A stretch of DNA of 64,000 nt, taken from the NCBI GenBank assembly GCA_030603395.1, contig JAUVXX010000002.1, positions 79,807 through 143,806 of the forward strand. Reading direction: 5' to 3'. Made by a program: the position numbers and the translations under genes. This document shows positions 2,600-55,246 of this stretch, one piece after another (the first letter of the stretch is position 1; every line of letters starts with the position of its first letter). The DNA comes from a bacterium (GTDB taxonomy: Bacteria > Patescibacteriota > Minisyncoccia > Minisyncoccales > CG1-02-41-26). Below the pieces are notes generated by a model. That model was given only the letters and a program-made list of their open reading frames with translations, had not been told where the DNA came from and searched no databases.

Positions 2600-3838
2600 T
2601 TATTTTCCTTGATTTAGTTCTTCCTCTATTCTCAATAATCTATTGTATTTAGCCACCCTTTCTCCGCGAGAGGGCGCCCCTGCCAAGAGCCAGCCGGCAG
2701 CCAATCCCACCGAAAGGTCAGCTATAAAATCATCACAGGTTTCTCCTCCCCGGTGTTTAACAAAAACCTTCCAGCCATTTTGAACAGCAAGATTGGCCGC
2801 AGCTATCGTTTCAGAAACCGTTCCAATCTGATTAGGTTTTAAAATTAATCCGTTACAGGCCTTTTTAGCTATTGCCTCTTCTATTCTTTGAATATTGGTT
2901 GTTAAAAGGTCGTCTCCAATAATGGTAATTTCTTTGCCAAGCCTTTTGGTAATCTCTTGAAATCCCTGCCAATCTTCTTCAGCAAAAGGGTCCTCAATGG
3001 CCATAATTGGATATTTCTCCAAAATTTCTGCAAAGAACTTTAAAAGTTCTTCTCTGCTCAAGATTCCCTCTTCAAAATGATATTTTCCATTGCGGAAGAA
3101 AGAGGTGGCAGCTACATCAAGAATAATTTCTACCTTGTTTTGATAGCCCGCCTTGTCAATGGCTTCCATAACTAAATCCAAGGCCTCTTTGGTTCTCTTT
3201 AAGGGTGGGGTAAATCCTCCTTCAATTCCTACCTTGGTGGCTGATTGACCATATCTTTTATTTAAAATTAAACCAAGGGTGTGATAAATTTCAGTTCCCA
3301 TACGAAGCTGTTCAGAAAAAGAATCTTCTTGAGAAACAACTATAAACTCCTGAACGTCTAAATCTCCTCTACCGTGAAGCCCGCCCTCCATAAATAAAAT
3401 GCCAGGAACAGGCAAGGCAGGAGTTCTCTTGGCAATTTTTGAAAGCCATTTCCATAAAGGCAGGTTCTTAGCCGCAGCCCCGGCTCTCAAGCATGCCATT
3501 GATACTCCCAAAATGGCATTGGCTCCAAGTTTTGACTTGTTTTCTGTGCCGTCAAGCTCAATCAAAAGTTCGTCAATTTCTTTCTGCTCCGTCGCATCCT
3601 CTCCCTTAAGTTTGGGGGCTAAAATCTTTTCAATATTGGCCACTGCCTTTAAAACTCCTTTACCCAAAAATCTTTTACCGCCATCCCTTAATTCAATCGC
3701 CTCATATTTTCCCCGAGAAACTCCCGAAGGCACTTGAGCCCTAAAAACTCCCTGCTCGGTTTCAACTTCTGCTTCAACCGTGGGCTCTCCTTTTGAGTCC
3801 AAAATTTCCCTGGCTTTAATTTTTTTAATCTTAGACAT
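2600..3838 (-). CDS. eno: enolase (phosphopyruvate hydratase)
   Basis: 412 aa. IKKIKAREILDSKGEPTVEAEV at the N-terminus; the later SHRSGETED motif equivalent reads KHRGGETCDDFIADLSV. The sequence is collinear with enolase over its full length. Confidence 0.95.
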   Translation of the reverse strand: MSKIKKIKAREILDSKGEPTVEAEVETEQGVFRAQVPSGVSRGKYEAIELRDGGKRFLGKGVLKAVANIEKILAPKLKGEDATEQKEIDELLIELDGTENKSKLGANAILGVSMACLRAGAAAKNLPLWKWLSKIAKRTPALPVPGILFMEGGLHGRGDLDVQEFIVVSQEDSFSEQLRMGTEIYHTLGLILNKRYGQSATKVGIEGGFTPPLKRTKEALDLVMEAIDKAGYQNKVEIILDVAATSFFRNGKYHFEEGILSREELLKFFAEILEKYPIMAIEDPFAEEDWQGFQEITKRLGKEITIIGDDLLTTNIQRIEEAIAKKACNGLILKPNQIGTVSETIAAANLAVQNGWKVFVKHRGGETCDDFIADLSVGLAAGWLLAGAPSRGERVAKYNRLLRIEEELNQGK

Positions 3839-4787
3839 TTTTTCTTTGTAAATACTCGTAAGTGGCTAAAGCTGCTCGACAGCCCTCCCCAGCCGCGATG
3901 ATAATTTGCTTCCATCTGCCATCATTAACGTCACCAGCGGCAAAAATGCCTTCGGTTGAGGTTTGACAGGTTTGAAAATCAACCTTTATCTCATCCCTCT
4001 CGTTAAAGTCAACCAGACCCTTCAAGAAACCGGTGGCAGGCACTGAACCGATTTGGACAAAAACTCCATCAATGGGCACCTGAAAGGTTTTGCTGGTTTT
4101 CAGGTCCTGATAAACTATATCTTGAACTTTGTCCTTTCCTTCAATTTTCTTTAGTTCTTTATTTAGATGAACCTGAATTTTTGTTTCTTTTTTTACCTGC
4201 TGTTGTAAAAGTTCGTCAGCTGTTATTTTATTAGACCTCTCAAAGATAAAAATTCTTTTGGCATATTTTGCCAAGTCAATAGCCGCTTCAAAGCCAGCGT
4301 TGCCTCCCCCAACCACCGCCACACTCTTATCTCGGAAGAAGGGGCTGTCGCATATTGAACAGTACGATATTCCCTTGCCGATAAATTCCTTCTCTCCGGG
4401 AATTTCCAAAGGTCTTGGGTCGCGACCCGTAGCTACCAGGACCGCTTTGGTTAAAAACTCCTGTTTGCTTTTCGTTTTGATTGAGAAACGACACGCAGTG
4501 TCGCCCTGAGCGGAGAGAAGGGTCACCTTCCGCACCTTTTCTCCTTCCACAATTTCAATGTCAAATTTCTTCAAATGGTCTTTAAACTTTCCCATCAAGT
4601 CCTGACCAATAATTCCAAAAAATCCCGGATAATTATCAACCCGTCCCGTTTTACCAACCTGCCCTATAAAGTTTCCGGTCAGCAATAAAGTTTTTATTTT
4701 TTTTCTCCCAGCGTAAATACCCGCTGTGATACCAGCGGGCCCTCCACCAATAATGACTAAATCATATAAGCTTGATTTATGATTCAT
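3831..4787 (-). CDS. trxB: thioredoxin-disulfide reductase
   Basis: 318 aa. It has the FAD motif VIIGGGPAGITAGIYA, the redox-centre-equivalent CSICDSPFF (CxxC), the NADPH motif VVGGGNAGFEAA and a C-terminal GIFAAGDV. Confidence 0.85.
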   Translation of the reverse strand: MNHKSSLYDLVIIGGGPAGITAGIYAGRKKIKTLLLTGNFIGQVGKTGRVDNYPGFFGIIGQDLMGKFKDHLKKFDIEIVEGEKVRKVTLLSAQGDTACRFSIKTKSKQEFLTKAVLVATGRDPRPLEIPGEKEFIGKGISYCSICDSPFFRDKSVAVVGGGNAGFEAAIDLAKYAKRIFIFERSNKITADELLQQQVKKETKIQVHLNKELKKIEGKDKVQDIVYQDLKTSKTFQVPIDGVFVQIGSVPATGFLKGLVDFNERDEIKVDFQTCQTSTEGIFAAGDVNDGRWKQIIIAAGEGCRAALATYEYLQRKNV

Positions 4788-7942: not shown

Positions 7943-8052
7943 TAAAAATCCAAATGACAAAATCCAAATGACAAAAATACTTTTTTATTTGACATTTAAA
8001 CATTTGACATTGATTTGACATTGATTTGACATTTGACATTTGGGCTTTGGAT
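7943..8052. repeat. composite repeat spacer: 2x AAATCCAAATGACA, then 5x TTTGACA(TT..) and TTTGGAT units
   Basis: aaatccaaatgaca aaatccaaatgaca ... tttgacatttaaaca tttgacattga tttgacattga tttgaca tttgaca tttgggctttggattt. The left 14-mers are approximately the reverse complement of the right end (TGACATTTGG..TTTGGATTT), giving an imperfect long hairpin. Confidence 0.8.
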
Positions 8053-10371
8053 TTATTTTCTAAGTTCCTCAATCTTTCTTACGACGTCCTCATTGCCAGG
8101 ATTGAGCTCCAAAACTTTCTCAAACTCTCTTAGGGCGGATTCGTTCTCTCCCCTTCTCTCGTAAGCCAATCCCAGAGAATAATGGGCATTAGCATGATTG
8201 GGAGCAAATCTTATTATCTGCTGAAAGAGGTCAACAGCTTCATCTATTCTGTCGGAATTGTAATAAAGCCGACCCAGCTGGAAAAGGACTTCGGTGTTAA
8301 AGGGGTAAAATTGCGCCAACGTTTCCATTCTTCTTATTGCCTCCTCTATCCTCTGCTCGCTCTCGTCCAATAAACTTAGCTGTAAATTGGCATCAAGGTA
8401 TTCTGGCATCAATTCAACGGCTCTCCTGAACAACTCCCTGGCCTCTGTTATTCGGTTGTCAATCACCTTAAGTTTCCCCAGTTCGGTCAAGAGAACCGGA
8501 TTTCTCGGTTCGAGAGCCAAGGCGTTTTCAAAACTTTTAGTCCCCCACTCCAAAGCTCCTTGAGCTACCCCCCTAATATCGCGATAAATAACCCCTAATG
8601 TTTCTTGCGCTGCCACTCTATTAGGGCTAAGTTCAGTGGCTGCTTTCCCTTCTGCCACGGCCAGAGCCACCATATTCCCTATGACCTGATTGTCGGGTGT
8701 CGATTTGGCGGCTTCTTGAGCAAATCTTTGGAGATAAGTTCTGGCTAAAACAATGTGGTAGGTGCCTCTCTTTTCAGCAAGCCGGGTGGCTTCTTCCAGG
8801 TTCTTGAGGTTCTGGGTGGGATTTACCAGATAACTTTTGTATTTAACATCAGCCAAATAATATTTCCCCAGGCTGAAAAAGCAAAAAGCAAATCCAATCA
8901 AAACCACCCAAAAGATAACGCTAAAAATCAAACCAACCTCCGGAAAGTCCTTGAAAGAATAAACTTTCTCCTTGGGAGTACGGTCCCAAGAAACCACAGT
9001 CAGGCCCAGAAACAACCAGAAGCTAAAAGCCAGAATAATGTTCTGGTAAAAAACGAACTGCCCTATGAACAAGACAACAAAGCCAAGTAATAACGGTATT
9101 TGGATTTTGGCTGCCCTATTGGACACCCCGTAGGGTTCTTTTGGATTTGATTTGTCGTTTGGATTTTGGCTTTTGGATTTTAATATCATTAGCGATATCA
9201 TCAAGAACATGCCTACCATCAAAAAATAACTCAAAATTCCCAGAATTCCTACTGTCCCAAAGATTTCAGCAATATGGTTGCCGGCTCTGTCAAATCTTAT
9301 TTGCCAAAACTCACTTTGCAGGAAATCTACCGATTTAAATTTAGCGAAAGTGTAACTGAAATTGCCGAGCCCGGCTCCTAAAACAAGGTGCTCTTTTAAC
9401 CCCTGTCCCGCAACGCTCCAGCTGGTTCCTTGCTCCAAAAGCACTTCGCTTGGTAAATTACTGAAGCTGGAATCCTGAGGCAAAAGACTCTGCAAAGGAT
9501 TAAACAAAAGGAAAATCAAAGCAATCAACAAAAAGAAAATTGACAAGCTCAGTCGCCCAACGTCCTCTTTAAACACTCTTTTCCAAAAGGCAAATCCCAG
9601 AAAGCAAAGCAAAGTCAAAAGTATCATCAGCCAGGCTGGCCAAAAGTCAGTTAGCATTAAGAGAAAAAGCGAAGCAAAGAGCAAGAGATAAAATCCGAGA
9701 TTACCTCTTTTCTCCCCCTTGCCCGCCGTAGCTCCCGCAGGAGCGGAGGCGGGTTTCTCTTTGAAAGCCAATAGGCCAATTACCAATACCGAAATAAATG
9801 CCAAAAATATTGCCAGCTGTTCAAGGGAACCCCCGATGCTGTTGAAAATCCGGAGTTTCATCAGCTGGGGGAATTGCCAGTTGCCGGGTATGACGTTTTC
9901 AATTCTCGCCCAAATTCCAAATAAAGAAAAATAACTTATTGAAACCGCCAAGAACGCCGACCAGAGAAAAACTTTGAGTAAACCACTTATTCTAATAAGT
10001 CCTTCCTTGGCTTTAACGTTATTGGTAATCAGGAAATAAAAACCTCCCAAAGACAAAATCCCCATTAACGACGGCCAAAACCTTCCATAGAAGCCGAGCA
10101 AACTGGTAATCTTATCCTGAGAGAACAAAGCGCTAAAAATCATCACCACCAAAAATCCCAGAACATAAAGGTCAAGCGGGGTCCGGCGGAACCTAATCTC
10201 TTTATCTTGAAAAATCATCTTGCCCAACCAGGCCAAAATGCCGATTGAGACCAAAATGAAAAGTAAATAACCTTTGTTAAACTCAAATGCCTCAAAGCTG
10301 AAAGACAGCCAGAAAAGAGGCATCAGAAAAACGAGCGCGTAAATACTGAGCTTTATAACTTTTTGCCACAT
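8053..10371 (-). CDS. O-antigen ligase (Wzy_C)-like polytopic membrane protein with C-terminal TPR repeats (paralogue 1)
   Basis: The protein has many TM helices and the Wzy_C-type motif RAGNHIAEIFGTVGILGILSYF. The C-terminal ~230 aa carry TPR-like repeats (ALALEPRNP..., AVELMPEY..., IRFAPNHANAHYSLGLAYERRGE...LELNPGN). The ORF-track start at 10422 is a TTG inside a palindromic repeat, so I prefer the ATG at 10369-10371 (MWQKVIKL...). Confidence 0.7.
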   Translation of the reverse strand: MWQKVIKLSIYALVFLMPLFWLSFSFEAFEFNKGYLLFILVSIGILAWLGKMIFQDKEIRFRRTPLDLYVLGFLVVMIFSALFSQDKITSLLGFYGRFWPSLMGILSLGGFYFLITNNVKAKEGLIRISGLLKVFLWSAFLAVSISYFSLFGIWARIENVIPGNWQFPQLMKLRIFNSIGGSLEQLAIFLAFISVLVIGLLAFKEKPASAPAGATAGKGEKRGNLGFYLLLFASLFLLMLTDFWPAWLMILLTLLCFLGFAFWKRVFKEDVGRLSLSIFFLLIALIFLLFNPLQSLLPQDSSFSNLPSEVLLEQGTSWSVAGQGLKEHLVLGAGLGNFSYTFAKFKSVDFLQSEFWQIRFDRAGNHIAEIFGTVGILGILSYFLMVGMFLMISLMILKSKSQNPNDKSNPKEPYGVSNRAAKIQIPLLLGFVVLFIGQFVFYQNIILAFSFWLFLGLTVVSWDRTPKEKVYSFKDFPEVGLIFSVIFWVVLIGFAFCFFSLGKYYLADVKYKSYLVNPTQNLKNLEEATRLAEKRGTYHIVLARTYLQRFAQEAAKSTPDNQVIGNMVALAVAEGKAATELSPNRVAAQETLGVIYRDIRGVAQGALEWGTKSFENALALEPRNPVLLTELGKLKVIDNRITEARELFRRAVELMPEYLDANLQLSLLDESEQRIEEAIRRMETLAQFYPFNTEVLFQLGRLYYNSDRIDEAVDLFQQIIRFAPNHANAHYSLGLAYERRGENESALREFEKVLELNPGNEDVVRKIEELRK
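9139..9182. repeat. TTTGGAT/TTTGGCT heptamer-type low-complexity tract inside the coding sequence
   Basis: The plus strand reads ttttggatttgatttgtcgtttggattttggcttttggatttt, which encodes KSKSQNPNDKSNPK. The same motif family occurs in the 7943-8052 spacer. Confidence 0.6.
9709..9760. repeat. GC-rich two-tier palindromic element, copy 1 (inside paralogue 1)
   Basis: tttctcccccttgcccgccgtagc tcccgcaggagcgg aggcgggtttctct. Compared with 34575-34620, the 24-nt left arm has 2 mismatches and the 14-nt right arm is identical. The outer stem is CCCGCC/GGCGGG and the inner stem is GCTCC/GGAGC. Confidence 0.8.
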
Positions 10372-28257: not shown

Positions 28258-29148
28258 TCAAGCATTAAAGTATTGAATTTCTTCTTTGAGCTCAACGTTA
28301 AATTTATTTTTTACTTCTTTTTTGATTAAATTTATCAAACTCAAAACGTCTTTTGCCTGAGCTCCATCTAAATTAACGATAAAATTAGCGTGTTTCTCAG
28401 AAATCATAGCTCCCCCGCTTTTTCTTCCCTTCAACCCGCATTTTTCAATTAATTCCCCGGCTGAAACCCCTGAAGGATTCTTAAAAATACAGCCAGCCGA
28501 AGGAAATTTTAGAGGATGATTTTTCTCTCGGTAATCTAAAAAATGTTTTATCTCTTGCTCAATTTCCTTTGCCTTTCCCGGCTTCAGTTGGAGGATACAA
28601 GAAAGGATGATAAGATTTTTGTTTTTTTTAAAGATAGTTTCTTTGTAGCCAAAGTTGCAACTTTTTGCTTCAATATTTTTAATTTTTGATTCAGAGACAT
28701 CAAATACCTCTACACTTTTTACAACATCTGCCATCGAGTTGTCAAAAGCGGCAACGTTATTGTGAACTGCTCCTCCGACTGTGCCTGGGATGCCAGCCGC
28801 CCATTCAAGACCGGTCAAATTATTTTTTGCTGCCAATTTCACCAAATCACCTAATTCTGCTCCTGTCTCAGCTTCAATAATTTTGACATTTGACATTTTG
28901 TTTTGACATTTGACATTTGACATTTGACATTTTATCACTAATCCATTATATCCCTTATCCGAAACCAATAAATTGCTTCCTCCTCCCAAAATAAAAAAGG
29001 GCAACTTAGCGCTTTGGGCAAACTTTATTGCCTTTATTAATTCTTCTTTGCTTTTAGCTTGAAAAAAATACTTCGCCCTTCCCCCAATTTTAAACGTTGT
29101 ATAATTTTTTAACGGGATATTTTTCTGAATTCCCGGAAGAAGTTTCAT
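28258..29148 (-). CDS. murB: UDP-N-acetylenolpyruvoylglucosamine reductase MurB (carries an in-frame heptamer-repeat segment)
   Basis: It has the FAD-binding N-terminus NYTTFKIGGRAKYFF, then ILGGGSNLLV, GLEWAAGIPGTVGGAV and a C-terminal SAGCIFKNP...ISEKHANFIVN. Confidence 0.9.
   Translation of the reverse strand: MKLLPGIQKNIPLKNYTTFKIGGRAKYFFQAKSKEELIKAIKFAQSAKLPFFILGGGSNLLVSDKGYNGLVIKCQMSNVKCQNKMSNVKIIEAETGAELGDLVKLAAKNNLTGLEWAAGIPGTVGGAVHNNVAAFDNSMADVVKSVEVFDVSESKIKNIEAKSCNFGYKETIFKKNKNLIILSCILQLKPGKAKEIEQEIKHFLDYREKNHPLKFPSAGCIFKNPSGVSAGELIEKCGLKGRKSGGAMISEKHANFIVNLDGAQAKDVLSLINLIKKEVKNKFNVELKEEIQYFNA
28883..28930. repeat. (TTGACAT)2-tttgtt-(TTGACAT)4 tandem heptamers inside murB
   Basis: Perfect units span 28883-28896 and 28903-28930. 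The tract is 48 nt in total and is translated as KCQMSNVKCQNKMSNVK. Confidence 0.9.
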
Positions 29149-51340: not shown

Positions 51341-53086
51341 TTAAATTGATTTAATTTTAATTTTTGGGGGTTTCTTTTGCTGAACAGAAACATTCATCTT
51401 AACCAAATCTTTATTTTCATCCAATAATTGACAAATGTCATAGACATTAAAATATTCTTTCTTTTTTGACAGAATGCGAAATATCTTTGTTACTAATTTA
51501 AAATCTTCTTTGGTATCAACGGTAACCCGATATTGGGGTCGAAAAATATCTGGGTCCTCAACTTTAATAACATCACACTTAAATATACCGGGTTTCCTAA
51601 AATATGGTCCCCAGATTTCAGTATCTGAAGAATCTTTTAAATCACATACTTTCTCGAGAGCATTTTTAGAAACAGCATATGCCCCGCAACCAAGAGGTAA
51701 TCCTTTGATTTCACAAAAATCAAACTTCTCTCTAAGATATCTCTCAATCATTTTTTCTATAAAAATAGGTTCTACAAATGGATCGTCCGCAGTTATACTT
51801 ATAATCAAATCTACGTCAAATTTTCGAGCACAATCCCTCATCCGAAGCAAAACATCTTCTTCGCTACCTCGAAAATACTTTATGTCTTTTTTCTTGGTAA
51901 TTTTAATTAATGGGTTGTCCTGAGGATTAGTTGAAGTCATCATTACTACGGGAGTAATATGGCAATGCTTTAATCTGTCAATCATCCACCCAACTATTGG
52001 TTTGCCTAAAATCGGCTTTATGATTTTAAGGGGAAGCCGTTTTGATTTTAATCTGGCAGTTATAAATATGCCAACCTTGGGAAGCTCTCTCTTTTTGATT
52101 GGTTCAAATCTTTCATAAGACAGCCTTGACTTTTTATTAAGTAATGATTTTAACCGGCTGCCAGAAATTTCTCCTCTTTTTGCTCTCATTACTGCTAAAT
52201 TATCCTTACCAAAATTCTGGCCAGCCTTAATATCCTTTTTAGCTACAACTTTCATTAAGGACTTGTACTTTCTGTAGCGGAGTTCATCAGGAGAAACCTC
52301 ATTTACTTTCTTATCAAGGATTTTACCAGCCATTCTAATATTTTTTACAAAATCAGCAAATTCATCCGGATTTAAAGCAGCTTCATAATCGTGGCCTTTC
52401 AGGGCTCTGTTGTGAGTAATATGCTTCTCAGTAATAGAAGCTCCTTGCGAGATAGCCAAAACCGGTAAATAAGTAGAGGCAGAAGATATGGGCTCTGAAT
52501 GGTCCTGATAGCCCCAGGGAAGATTTAATTTTTGGGATAATTCCCGGATAAAATTAAGATTAATGCCTTGAGGCCTTGTGGGAAAATTTTGCAACCCATA
52601 CATTAGATGAATCTTGGCTTTTTTATTAACAGAGTAGATAAATTTTAGGATTTTTTCTATTCCTTCTTTTCCCATTCCCCCAACCGACAAATGAATTTCC
52701 TTTTTTGACTTGACTACCTCTCGGATTAGATCCTTGTTTTCTAAATTGGATGAATGAAATTTAAATCCTTTAATAGGTTTGTTTCTGCAAAATTTAGCGC
52801 TCTCTAAGTCATAAACATTAGCCCAAACATCTAAGTGGAGAGTATTAGCTTTCTTTATAAGTTTTGCCCATACTTTTTGATTTAAGTAGAAGCTTTTTAT
52901 ATTTTTATAGTCCTCGTCTTGAGGAATAATATAGGTCGCAAGGTCAATCAATTGAAATAAAATTCCATCGGCTCCGGCTAAAGAAGCAGATTTAATAATA
53001 AATTCAGCAATTTTGGCATCTCCCTCATGAGAAGAAGCCATTTCCGCCAAAATATATGTAAATGTTTTTTTATCTTTTATTTGCAT
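51341..53086 (-). CDS. fusion protein: NeuB/SpsE-like synthase (with SAF domain) plus cytidylyltransferase (SpsF / CMP-NulO synthetase-like)
   Basis: The N-terminal ~340 aa read FTYILAEMASSHEGDAKIAEFIIKSASLAGADGILFQ...GYQDHS...SAF (VVAKKDIKAGQNF...MRAKRG). The C-terminal ~235 aa read GIFITARLKSKRLPLKIIKPILGKPIV...YFRGSEEDVLLR...ITADDPF, which is the CTP_transf_3 family. Confidence 0.75.
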   Translation of the reverse strand: MQIKDKKTFTYILAEMASSHEGDAKIAEFIIKSASLAGADGILFQLIDLATYIIPQDEDYKNIKSFYLNQKVWAKLIKKANTLHLDVWANVYDLESAKFCRNKPIKGFKFHSSNLENKDLIREVVKSKKEIHLSVGGMGKEGIEKILKFIYSVNKKAKIHLMYGLQNFPTRPQGINLNFIRELSQKLNLPWGYQDHSEPISSASTYLPVLAISQGASITEKHITHNRALKGHDYEAALNPDEFADFVKNIRMAGKILDKKVNEVSPDELRYRKYKSLMKVVAKKDIKAGQNFGKDNLAVMRAKRGEISGSRLKSLLNKKSRLSYERFEPIKKRELPKVGIFITARLKSKRLPLKIIKPILGKPIVGWMIDRLKHCHITPVVMMTSTNPQDNPLIKITKKKDIKYFRGSEEDVLLRMRDCARKFDVDLIISITADDPFVEPIFIEKMIERYLREKFDFCEIKGLPLGCGAYAVSKNALEKVCDLKDSSDTEIWGPYFRKPGIFKCDVIKVEDPDIFRPQYRVTVDTKEDFKLVTKIFRILSKKKEYFNVYDICQLLDENKDLVKMNVSVQQKKPPKIKIKSI

Positions 53087-55229
53087 GAGAGATTACGCAA
53101 TCTTTTATCTCGGCAAAATCGTCGTAATATTTTGATGAAGGGTTATTCAGGGAACTTAAAAACTGAGCTTTTGGCTTTGGAAAAAATATTTTTGTTCTTA
53201 TGTATAATGACCTAAGTTTTCCATATAGGCTATCGGGTAAATTTAAAAAATTAAAAATATCTCGTATTCTATTTTTTAGAAAACATTTAAAATCATTGGG
53301 GTAGTTTTTCTTTAAATAGATAGCCATTGCATCATCAATCACCTTTTTTGATTTCTCTATGTCTAACTGAGATTTTTTACTTAAGTGAATTGCTAAGCAT
53401 TTTTTGAACTTAGCATATTTTTCATGATAACTACCTTCCTTGATAAATTCAGGAATATCTTCATTTCTGATACCTGCTGAATCAGGGATTATTTCCCGGG
53501 CAGTATAAAGCACATCTAAACATTTCATTTTACCGCATATCAATGCAAACATAGAGGGTAAAAGTTCAGCAAACCGTTCATCATCTGTGAATTTCAACAT
53601 TTCTTTAAAAATCATTTTCAAAAATTCAGTTTGGTGAACACCAAAAAGAGTTACCACTGAATAATCTGATAAATGTTTAAATAATCTCAATTTTGGGTCT
53701 TCAAAAGTAATTGATTCAGTTAAACATCCAGATGTTAAATAAAATTGTTTTTTTCCGCTCTTTTTAGTTTTTAAATAGAAAGATATGTGATTGCCGTAAA
53801 CAACCGTAAAATCAGGGTTATTTTCGAGAAAATCAACAGCTCGTTTAATGCCTTTCGGAGTAACAAAATCATCATCGGCACAAAATAAACAATATTTAGT
53901 TTTAGCATAATTTACGGCGTCAGCGGCCTGATGGCGAAACTTATCAAGCTTCTCTGAATAATGATTGAGGTATAAAATGTCTAAATCCAAGAAAGAAGAA
54001 ATAATTTCTTTATTTTTTGTTTTATTTTCATCCGAGCTGGAATCTGAAACAATGAGCTTAAAATCATTTTTATATTCCCTGTAATAATCAATGAGTCGTC
54101 TTAGGCAACCTGGACGGTTGTGGGTTATGATTATGATGGTAGCTTTTATCATTTTATTATTTTTTATTGCATGAGACATTATACAAGTTCGTATCTTATT
54201 AAAATCTTTGTAATATTCGGTCGGCAGGTCATTTGTTGAAGTTGAATTTGAATAATTATTATCTTTTTTGGGTAAAGAAAACAGCCGCCGATATAATAAA
54301 CTTATTTTTTTATATATCCAATCAGGCATATTTAACTTGTGTAAAATATTTGCCACTCCCATTATTAAAAAATGATAAGGGTTTATGTATACAGACATAG
54401 CTTTATCAACTATCCTTTTTGATTTCTCTATTCCTAATTGAGATTTTTTGCTTAGGTGGGTCGCCAAACATTCTCTAAACTTAATGTATTTCTCGTCATA
54501 AGTACCCTCCCTAATAAAATCGTCCATAGTTTTTGCCCTACTAGTTGCACAATCAGGAGTTACTTCCCTGACTCCATAAAGCACGTCTAAAGATTCCATT
54601 TTCCCATGTATTAAGGCAAGCATAGATGGTAAAAGTTCGCCAAATCTTCCATCATTTGTGAATTTTAATGTCTCTTTAAAAATCATTTTAAAAAAATCAG
54701 TTCGGAGAACGCCGAAAATGGTTACCGAATAATTTGATAAATATTCAACTAATCTCGATTTTGCTTCTGGAAAAGTAATTGATTTATGTAAATATATAGG
54801 AGCCCAATAAAATTGCTTCTTTCTACTCCTTTTAGTTTTTAAATAGAAAGAAACATAATCGCCGTGGGCGACTGTAAAGTCAGGGTTATTTTCGAGAAAA
54901 TCAACAGCTTGTTTAATACCTTTCGGAGCAATAAAATCATCATCGGCACAATATATGCAGTATTTGCTTTTGACATAATTTGAAGCATCAAGGAGCTGAT
55001 GATGGGCTTCATTACTTCCATGGGAGGAATCGCTATGGTAATTAACATATAAGATGTCTGAATCTAAGAAAGAAGAAATAGTTTCTTTATTTTTTGTTTT
55101 ATTTTCATCCGAGCTGGAATCTGAAACAATTATCTTAAAATCATTTTTATATTCCCTGTAATAATCAAGGAGTCGTCTTAGATGACCTGGACGGTTATGG
55201 GTTATGACTATAATGGTAGCTTTTATCAT
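53070..55229 (-). CDS. tandem-duplicated GT-A-like glycosyltransferase, two ~360-aa paralogous units fused in one ORF
   Basis: Unit 1 (55229-54153) and unit 2 (54152-53070) both start MIKATII(V/I)ITHNRPG.LRRL.DYYREYKNDFK.IVSDSSSDENKTKNKE. Unit 2 begins with its own ATG at 54150-54152. The first ~150 nt of the two units are more than 90% identical by hand alignment, and the rest is much more diverged. Confidence 0.65.
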   Translation of the reverse strand: MIKATIIVITHNRPGHLRRLLDYYREYKNDFKIIVSDSSSDENKTKNKETISSFLDSDILYVNYHSDSSHGSNEAHHQLLDASNYVKSKYCIYCADDDFIAPKGIKQAVDFLENNPDFTVAHGDYVSFYLKTKRSRKKQFYWAPIYLHKSITFPEAKSRLVEYLSNYSVTIFGVLRTDFFKMIFKETLKFTNDGRFGELLPSMLALIHGKMESLDVLYGVREVTPDCATSRAKTMDDFIREGTYDEKYIKFRECLATHLSKKSQLGIEKSKRIVDKAMSVYINPYHFLIMGVANILHKLNMPDWIYKKISLLYRRLFSLPKKDNNYSNSTSTNDLPTEYYKDFNKIRTCIMSHAIKNNKMIKATIIIITHNRPGCLRRLIDYYREYKNDFKLIVSDSSSDENKTKNKEIISSFLDLDILYLNHYSEKLDKFRHQAADAVNYAKTKYCLFCADDDFVTPKGIKRAVDFLENNPDFTVVYGNHISFYLKTKKSGKKQFYLTSGCLTESITFEDPKLRLFKHLSDYSVVTLFGVHQTEFLKMIFKEMLKFTDDERFAELLPSMFALICGKMKCLDVLYTAREIIPDSAGIRNEDIPEFIKEGSYHEKYAKFKKCLAIHLSKKSQLDIEKSKKVIDDAMAIYLKKNYPNDFKCFLKNRIRDIFNFLNLPDSLYGKLRSLYIRTKIFFPKPKAQFLSSLNNPSSKYYDDFAEIKDCVISHANKR

Positions 55230-55246
55230 TTATTTATTAAAAAGGA

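Follow-up and report, generated by a model that had tools for sequence, protein, structure and literature searches.

Intragenic copies of repetitive extragenic palindromic sequences (REPs) have been documented, and two of the Rickettsia palindromic elements (RPEs), RPE-4 and RPE-6, are REPs that carry a CGTC tag and have stems of 8–9 bp starting with AT (PMC3733652). The HUH transposases, including the REP-associated tyrosine transposases (RAYTs) and TnpA of the insertion sequences IS200/IS605, leave no target-site duplication and use a short 3′ tetranucleotide as the element end (PMC3733652, PMC6006769). A GC-rich palindromic element comparable to these systems occurs twice in a 64,000 nt stretch of patescibacterial DNA (contig JAUVXX010000002.1 of assembly GCA_030603395.1, positions 79,807–143,806; the whole stretch is called the window below), each time inside a gene for a membrane protein. 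The two copies are probably short, non-autonomous repeats of the REP type that were inserted as discrete units, a reading that is favoured on balance and with reservations. The element is best filed as a palindromic repeat of the REP/RPE kind, acting like an intragenic REP or RPE but lying outside the described families. The core interpretation of an earlier reading of the sequence (the original prediction), which proposed a two-tier hairpin shared by the two genes at the nucleotide level, was essentially right, with corrections to the limits of the element, the inner stem of copy 2 and the taxonomic range.

Orthologous DNA with and without the segment was aligned at both sites. At site 1 the empty allele (P0003, locus L127) reads AGAGAGAAA^GGGGAGAAAAGAGG and the filled allele of the window AAAGAGAAA-CCCGCCTCCGCTCCTGCGGGAGCTACGGCGGGCAAG-GGGGAGAAAAGAGG, an insert of 36 nt, while at site 2 the empty allele (P0124, locus L124) is AAGAGAGAAA^GAGGAGAAATAGAAACT and the filled allele AGGAGAGAAA-CCCGCCTTCGCCAAGGCTACAGCGGGCAAG-GAGGAGAAATAGAAACT, an insert of 30 nt. 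The boundaries are unambiguous at both sites, since not even a one-base shift of the inserts is possible. Microhomology is absent, and comparison of the filled and empty alleles revealed no target-site duplication at either of these clean sites. Both segments are thus insertions with exact empty alleles, the outcome of an orthologue alignment that had been proposed as a check. The two sequences first reported are present exactly at nt 9709–9760 and 34575–34620, with no third copy in the window, and they do share an element, but the outer parts of their arms (GAGAAA, GRGGAGAAA) are host sequence that is found in empty alleles as well. The GAGAAA flanks, although present at both copies as described, are therefore target sequence and not part of the element. 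The revised limits are given in Table 1.

Table 1. Positions in the window of the two element copies, their parts, the adjoining target sequences and the host genes (^ marks the insertion point).
Feature	Position (nt)	Strand	Description	Evidence
Element copy 1	9718–9753	−	36 nt: CCCGCC-TCC-GCTCC-TGCG-GGAGC-TAC-GGCGGG-CAAG	Covariance model; exact insert relative to empty allele L127/P0003
Copy 1, outer stem 5′ arm CCCGCC	9748–9753	−	Pairs with 9722–9727 (GGCGGG)	Family covariation at this stem
Copy 1, core	9728–9747	−	Internal loop TCC/TAC around inner hairpin GCTCC-TGCG-GGAGC	Family core T[TC]CGC..GCTAC
Copy 1, 3′ tail CAAG	9718–9721	−	Unpaired conserved tag closing the inserted unit	Within insert boundary
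Host target 5′ of copy 1	9754–9762	−	..AAAGAGAAA^	Present in empty alleles too (compared with L127, L002)
Host target 3′ of copy 1	9702–9717	−	^GGGGAGAAAAGAGGTA	Allele comparison
Element copy 2	34584–34613	−	30 nt: CCCGCC-TTC-GC-CAAG-GC-TAC-AGCGGG-CAAG	Covariance model; exact insert relative to empty allele L124/P0124
Copy 2, 3′ tail CAAG	34584–34587	−		Insert boundary; family tail; covariance model
Host target 5′ of copy 2	34614–34623	−	..GGAGAGAAA^	Compared with L124
Host target 3′ of copy 2	34568–34583	−	^GAGGAGAAATAGAAAC	Allele comparison
Host gene 1	8053–10371 (alternative end 10422)	−	Polytopic membrane protein with C-terminal TPR repeats (P0001, 772 aa)	
Host gene 2	32575–34653	−	Wzy_C/O-antigen-ligase-like membrane protein (P0121, 692 aa)	

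The distribution of the inserts among orthologues is patchy at both sites. The two closest orthologues of host gene 1 (87% and 85% identity) lack copy 1. In P0002 (L002), which is likewise without the insert, six other nucleotides (AAGGAG) take its place. A more remote orthologue, P0005 (69% protein identity), has a copy matching at 35 of 36 nt. The gene of P0005 and that of the window have a nucleotide identity of 0.72 overall and of 0.80–0.90 around copy 1, which hints that copy 1 may have been transferred by recombination between the window lineage and L001; this is a lead only, the region being conserved at the protein level too. P0124 lacks the site 2 insert, and so do most of the 120 homologues, with their empty ..RERGEI.. 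tail. Where it does occur, several stages of change are seen: P0123 retains only a 3′ remnant (AGTGGGCAAG) after an in-frame deletion of 21 nt, P0133 carries an AT-decayed copy in which LRQGYS is retained through synonymous changes, the stem is broken in P0122, and in P0125 (L004) both sides of the stem have changed (CCCTCC...GGAGGG) with pairing retained. The same insertion as in the window was seen in the separate assemblies L001 (ENA) and L004 (NCBI), and in decayed form in L003 (NCBI). Because the site 2 peptide is common to several orthologues with synonymous changes, the insertion at this site is old. Two other orthologues of the host gene 2 product, P0172 and P0237, have a different, GC-rich-looking peptide (..GGQAGPPASLREQARLRSV..) at residues ~14–35 of the same N-terminal tail, which is probably another palindromic element family in the same permissive spot.

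The products of the two host genes are collinear paralogues of the Wzy_C/O-antigen-ligase kind with C-terminal TPR repeats (for host gene 1, Wzy_C is carried by orthologues). The window is 94% coding, with 54 of its 56 open reading frames (ORFs) of at least 90 aa on the minus strand, so that nearly every insertion would hit some gene. The K/E-rich loop that holds copy 1, between hydrophobic segments, is hypervariable and differs in length among orthologues; copy 1 itself is translated as PASAPAGATAGK (residues 206–217). The reading frame of copy 2 is shifted by one relative to copy 1 and gives (T)RLRQGYSGQ(G); this copy is located in the N-terminal tail after the conserved MGKKSR start; as this N-terminus is nearly invariant across 120 homologues, copy 2 is truly within the coding sequence. 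The translations and an alignment of the paralogues bear out the earlier statement that frame and position differ between the copies, the two sites being non-homologous. They are also, as had been noted, far more GC-rich (0.78 for copy 1 and 0.70 for copy 2) than their surroundings (0.37–0.43).

A covariance model was trained on 65 copies from other genomes and from viral contigs, plus both window copies. Applied to the window, it returned exactly two sites, both on the minus strand, with scores of 46.5 bits for copy 2 (E = 1.7e-9) and 41.4 bits for copy 1 (E = 3.3e-8), while the next best score was 8.5 bits. Each of the half-motifs is found without mismatch at only two places in the 64 kb, and none of 100 shuffled sequences reached the observed counts. 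The unit has a common plan: a 6-nt arm, TYC, a variable hairpin enclosed by GC and GC, TAC, the complementary 6-nt arm and a CARG tail. The variable inner part ranges from 4 to ~20 nt, is always self-complementary and gives inner hairpins of 2–7 bp. Copy 1 folds as a strong two-tier hairpin with a 6-bp outer and a 5-bp inner stem, and copy 2 has an outer stem of 5–6 bp and an inner stem reduced to GC/GC, closing a CAAG loop, its fold being no better than that of shuffled sequence (z = −0.4 to −0.9). The two-tier hairpin was thus correctly described for both outer stems and for the inner stem of copy 1, but the inner stem proposed for copy 2 (GCCTT/AAGGC) is untenable, since 2 nt of it already belong to the 3′ arm of the outer stem.

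Across the family, a 14-nt core (TTCGC-YAAR-GCTAC) is conserved, as is the tail C-A/G-A/G-G, in which the three positions left free by the search pattern are 73–76% conserved among 160 copies (in most of these the pattern itself prescribed the first C). The 5′ flank of the element shows no conservation across the family. In the set aligned by the model, 99% of outer stem cells are paired, and 23 cells have changed on both sides compared with 1.2 expected from shuffles. A less biased test of covariation came from a scan of viral contigs with a pattern that left the arms free and prescribed the core and tail alone; of its 39 matches, 35 have arms that are complementary at five or more of six positions, with more than 20 different arm sequences, some of them AT-rich (e.g., CTAACT/AGTTAG). 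The conserved information is thus the 14-nt core and the CARG tail, the stems being structural only. A correlation between the sequences of the inner loop and the tail was tested and is unsupported. The commonest unit lengths are 30 and 33 nt, and as intergenic copies are also mostly of these sizes, a length that is a multiple of three is not due to selection on coding copies alone. These covarying stems, the empty alleles and the many further copies place the conservation at the level of nucleotides and structure, as originally proposed.

The search for further copies, which had been envisaged for Patescibacteria, did find many in ORFs and in spacers, but these are not specific to that group and occur in many phyla and in phage contigs. 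A scan with an exact pattern, using one genome per species, yielded at least 119 loci in more than 10 phyla. The hosts listed are Acidobacteriota, Planctomycetota, Verrucomicrobiota, Nitrospirota, several proteobacterial classes, Bacteroidota, Chloroflexota, Actinomycetota, Armatimonadota, Myxococcota, Desulfobacterota and at least six lineages of Patescibacteria; among the matches listed, copies are carried by megabase long-read contigs and by one isolate genome. Viral contigs of IMG/VR carry the element in 17 and 37 stretches (two scans), and eight of the viral cases adjoin lambda-type portal genes. In L131, L135, L139, L163, L181 and related IMG/VR contigs a lambda-family portal gene (PF05136) follows the element closely or includes it at its 5′ end. 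Copies also form head-to-tail arrays, at times in GC-rich genomes, with seven in 8 kb at L091 and five matches (E ≤ 0.1) in the viral contig L128. At L007, from a Patescibacteria metagenome-assembled genome (MAG), three copies bracket a tRNA gene (nt 3821–4068), with CCCGCC arms on one side of the tRNA and TCCGCC/GGCGGA or TCCACC/GGTGGA arms (two copies) on the other. A search of window nt 9650–9820 against Rfam 15 at E-values up to 10 returned nothing relevant, and among 15 copy-bearing loci Rfam matched only tRNA, rRNA and 6S, none of them at the element. No published description of the element was found in the literature, the coverage of which was incomplete, so an earlier description may exist; a 2026 preprint on hairpins proved to be unrelated.

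Five of the six reading frames of the canonical unit lack a stop codon and, the unit being a multiple of three, host ORFs stay open and the element is read through, giving a small peptide rich in Ala, Gly, Pro and Ser. It is likely that only in-frame insertions in disordered hydrophilic segments survive. At the low-GC loci of the genome scan, long ORFs contain copies of either orientation and of several frames, 9 of 30 copies being intragenic among the matches listed; in GC-rich genomes about half of the copies appear intergenic, ORF calls there being unreliable. Inside genes, 39 copies are in sense and 25 in antisense orientation, and those downstream of genes show a mild lean to antisense (45 versus 27). 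A scan anchored on GAGAAA plus the element gave 14 metagenome loci representing about nine distinct sites, all of them intragenic and in frame as ..EK-PA(F/S)AxATAG-(E/K).. in K/E-rich segments. In AT-rich contigs, several of them from Patescibacteria MAGs, the proteins that carry in-frame copies include GrpE, NusA, GyrB, L21, L22, MetRS and TGT (grpE, nusA, gyrB, rplU, rplV, metG, tgt), as well as a RecD2-like helicase and a VirB4-like ATPase with three copies. NusA is represented by three loci, one with two copies, namely L149 (PASAKATAG at residue 92 and PAFAKASAGKP near the C-terminus), and the GyrB copy lies in an N-terminal extension. The VirB4-like ORF of L151 has PPSLKATDGQ or SPSLKATDGQ twice, together with PASALATAG. 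The grpE gene was also seen within 1.5 kb of a copy in GC-rich Acidobacteriota (Vicinamibacterales L069 and L104) and in low-GC metagenome contigs (L147, L148 and L158), with hrcA near grpE in L069 and in these three contigs; the L069 copy falls within the grpE ORF, though not at the position seen in the low-GC contigs.

The closest architecture is that of the E. coli-type REPs (GTAG-3; PMC3733652). Both are GC-rich, 30–40 nt long and have an outer stem of 6–7 bp, two to three non-complementary nucleotides per side, a GC-closed variable inner loop or hairpin and an unpaired end tag of 4 nt; in both, stem residues covary and copies are single as well as clustered, some being intragenic. The terminal tag of the element is, however, CARG (CYTG on the other strand) and not GTAG or CGTC, with GTAG present only in the internal loop, and the REP survey (PMC3733652) neither lists this family nor mentions CTTG or CAAG. 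The size and palindromic form of REPs fit, and copy number reaches seven in 8 kb at L091 and two in the window, but REPs are mostly extragenic and downstream of ORFs while both window copies are intragenic. Like RPEs, the elements are palindromes inserted in frame into ORFs, including housekeeping genes, of a small, AT-rich and gene-dense genome, are read through as extra peptides and are present or absent among close orthologues. The original comparison with RPEs holds in this respect, as an analogy and not as homology. RPEs are not known outside Rickettsia and relatives, in contrast to the more than 10 phyla here. RPE-1 is longer (~100–150 nt), and the published description of RPE-4 and RPE-6, with their CGTC tags and AT-starting stems, does not fit the element. 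The ends of IS200/IS605, which move by single-strand ‘peel and paste’ transposition, and of their miniature derivatives, the palindrome-associated transposable elements (PATEs), share the lack of target duplication, a hairpin followed by a short 3′ tetranucleotide, and asymmetric ends (PMC6006769). They differ from the element, which is a single 30-nt hairpin without two different subterminal hairpins and has no family-wide 5′ target tetranucleotide, although both window targets end in GAGAAA^.

Integron attC sites resemble the element in their paired arms, unpaired central spacer, variable terminal hairpin and slight constraint on arm sequence, which makes structural recognition plausible, but they possess RYYYAAC/GTTRRRY boxes that are absent here, are ~55–140 nt long compared with 30 nt, and are associated with gene cassettes, whereas the neighbours of the element are housekeeping genes. 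GC clusters of yeast mitochondria, and the ‘byp’ elements, are GC-rich hairpins of ~30–50 nt that spread in AT-rich genomes, sometimes in protein-coding genes. They belong to a eukaryotic organelle, are unrelated in sequence, and byp elements are skipped by the ribosome; with a length that is a multiple of three and an open frame, ordinary translation suffices for the element. Two other classes were rejected. Elements with terminal inverted repeats and target-site duplications are typically 50–500 nt long, and here there is no duplication and the unit is only 30–36 nt. An intrinsic (Rho-independent) terminator was also discarded: the T-rich run TTTCTCT, which is host target sequence, comes after the hairpin on the plus strand alone, whereas the genes of the window lie on the opposite strand. 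Throughout the family, the 3′ flank of the hairpin is CARG followed by variable sequence.

The exact ends, asymmetric tail, lack of duplication, presence/absence and decay alleles, occurrence in both orientations, arrays, carriage by phages and genic as well as intergenic locations together indicate moving DNA, and not a selected coding segment or a strand-specific RNA. The mobile form would be a folded single DNA strand that a hairpin-recognising enzyme cuts and joins in trans; once in place, the element may pass from one related lineage to another when the gene segment around it undergoes homologous recombination. By analogy with REPs and IS200/IS605, a HUH/Y1 transposase of the RAYT or IS200/IS605 kind is a tentative candidate for the mobiliser, its involvement being somewhat doubtful since no such enzyme was found among the ORFs searched and an identical core across phyla is unusual for REP/RAYT pairs. 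The copies in the window are probably passengers without a host-selected function. Their targets are purine-rich linkers coding for K, E, R and G. In the window stripped of both elements, the only exact matches to the 16-mer AGAGAAAGRGGAGAAA are the two insertion sites; allowing up to one mismatch gives three sites, and up to two, six. As the 5′ flank is not conserved family-wide, this likeness is attributed either to a preference for certain targets in this lineage or to survivorship of insertions in K/E-rich linkers.

Several observations weigh against insertion of a REP-type repeat by such an enzyme. The two targets share 15 of 22 positions, compared with a mean of 9.9 of 22 for random pairs of purine-rich 22-mers from the window, and there are only two copies in the 64-kb window. 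Of the 119 genome matches listed, 118 are MAGs, and no convincing match was found in 72,556 plasmids or 50,697 GenBank phages, which gave only partial matches at chance level; consequently the element is not known from any cultured model organism. Arrays of the element run head-to-tail, and RAYT-associated REPs typically form inverted pairs (REPINs). Each classical REP evolves together with its RAYT and changes from one species to the next, whereas the core of the element is the same across phyla, which a lineage-specific transposase would not easily account for. Searches of the ORFs of the window and ~1.1 Mb of loci, which were of limited sensitivity, returned no homologue of E. coli RayT (phmmer) and no TnpA. 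No Pfam family is enriched among 150 flanking ORFs, Y1_Tnp is not among the 25 most frequent, and an all-against-all comparison of 2891 flanking ORFs gave no recurrent non-phage protein cluster beside the copies. ORFs of ~130 aa flanked by copies in the viral contigs L128 and L137 have no Pfam match and are mutually unrelated.

The transposase need not exist if a small hairpin of single-stranded DNA or complementary DNA (a retron-like or other reverse transcriptase product, or a phage by-product) is captured at a break or replication gap, or if a tyrosine recombinase carries out single-strand recombination as with attC. The exact ends without duplication or microhomology would suit such a route, as would the failure to find a linked transposase, the presence of copies in phage contigs, often beside lambda-type portal genes, and the combination of a conserved core and free stem, which resembles structure-specific recognition as in attC. 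It is nonetheless unlikely, having no direct support of any kind: the unit is only 30 nt and lacks an R-box (GTTRRRY), and neither reverse transcriptase nor integrase is enriched among the 150 flanking ORFs. A selected RNA structure, such as a protein-binding or stabilising hairpin whose recurrence reflects function and not mobility, would account for the strong covariation of both stems around an invariant core, for the compensatory change at the orthologous site in L004 and for the antisense lean of downstream copies. The strand complementary to the window mRNA reads [stem]-GUA-GC-YUUR-GC-GAA-[stem] and contains a 3 × 3 internal loop; this GUA/GAA loop may resemble the loop E/sarcin-ricin submotif, a lead only. 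The RNA explanation is distinctly improbable, as copies occur in both orientations inside genes and in unrelated contexts, two sites have exact filled and empty alleles, AT pressure erodes old copies but leaves their peptide in place, Rfam gave no match, the fold of copy 2 is no better than shuffles, and the genes of the window form a solid minus-strand block to which the loop-E-like strand is antisense.

Similarity at the protein level or by chance, whether through ancestral peptide segments or convergence of low-complexity K/E-rich linkers, has been largely refuted and is very improbable. ET(R/L/F)LRQGY(G/S) does recur at site 2 in several orthologues, with synonymous changes in P0133, and both sites are purine-rich and of low complexity, but the two copies are in different frames, site 1 is empty in the two closest orthologues and site 2 in most, the same 30-mer is intergenic or antisense in other phyla, and the covariance model E-values are 1e-8 to 1e-9. 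An artefact of MAG assembly, binning or polishing is scarcely credible; the near-exclusive origin of the genome matches from MAGs and the lack of convincing matches in curated plasmids and phages would be expected of one, yet the same codon is hit in independent assemblies of different projects (L001 from ENA; L003 and L004 from NCBI), graded decay, partial deletion and compensatory variants are seen in host ORFs that remain open, and copies are carried by megabase long-read contigs and an isolate genome. The REP-type insertion is preferred. A wider and rather doubtful proposal is that the element is a minimal mobile DNA that crosses phyla as a hairpin of ~30 nt, with the core and CARG recognised by a widespread enzyme, outer stems free to drift, phages as possible carriers and ~10–12 codons routinely added to essential genes of Patescibacteria; or that the core is a loop-E-like RNA or single-stranded DNA motif with a host function.

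Some other features of the window were recorded. The heptamer TTTGACA (TGTCAAA on the gene strand) forms tandem arrays at nt 7990–8049, between ftsZ and the 8053–10422 gene, and at nt 28878–28935, inside or upstream of the ORF at 28258–29148; an 18-mer from the array has six matches compared with 0.22 expected. A tandem duplication of ~1070 nt (nt 53311–55238; 73–91% identity over three segments) is an internal repeat of a large protein (719-aa ORF, nt 53070–55229). Negative GC skew prevails (30 of 32 intervals of 2 kb across nt 1–64000), the cumulative skew dropping almost steadily, and GC content steps down from ~0.42 (1–28 kb) to ~0.35 (28–64 kb).

If confirmed, the element would represent a third class of REP tag, with a recognition core shared across phyla that would point to a common mobilising or binding factor. 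The exact filled and empty alleles, together with a defined 3′ end after CARG, offer a concrete test system. The recurring peptides PAFAKATAGK, RLRQGYGGQ, PPSLKLRRA, LPAVALAKAG and ARRSLGEGG, where met in predicted proteins of such contigs, would all be translations of one DNA hairpin, which is relevant to annotation, to protein-family alignments and to the reading of ‘lineage-specific insertions’ in ribosomal and replication proteins. It would also mean that Patescibacteria, with their small genomes, tolerate palindromic insertions inside essential proteins, as Rickettsia does.

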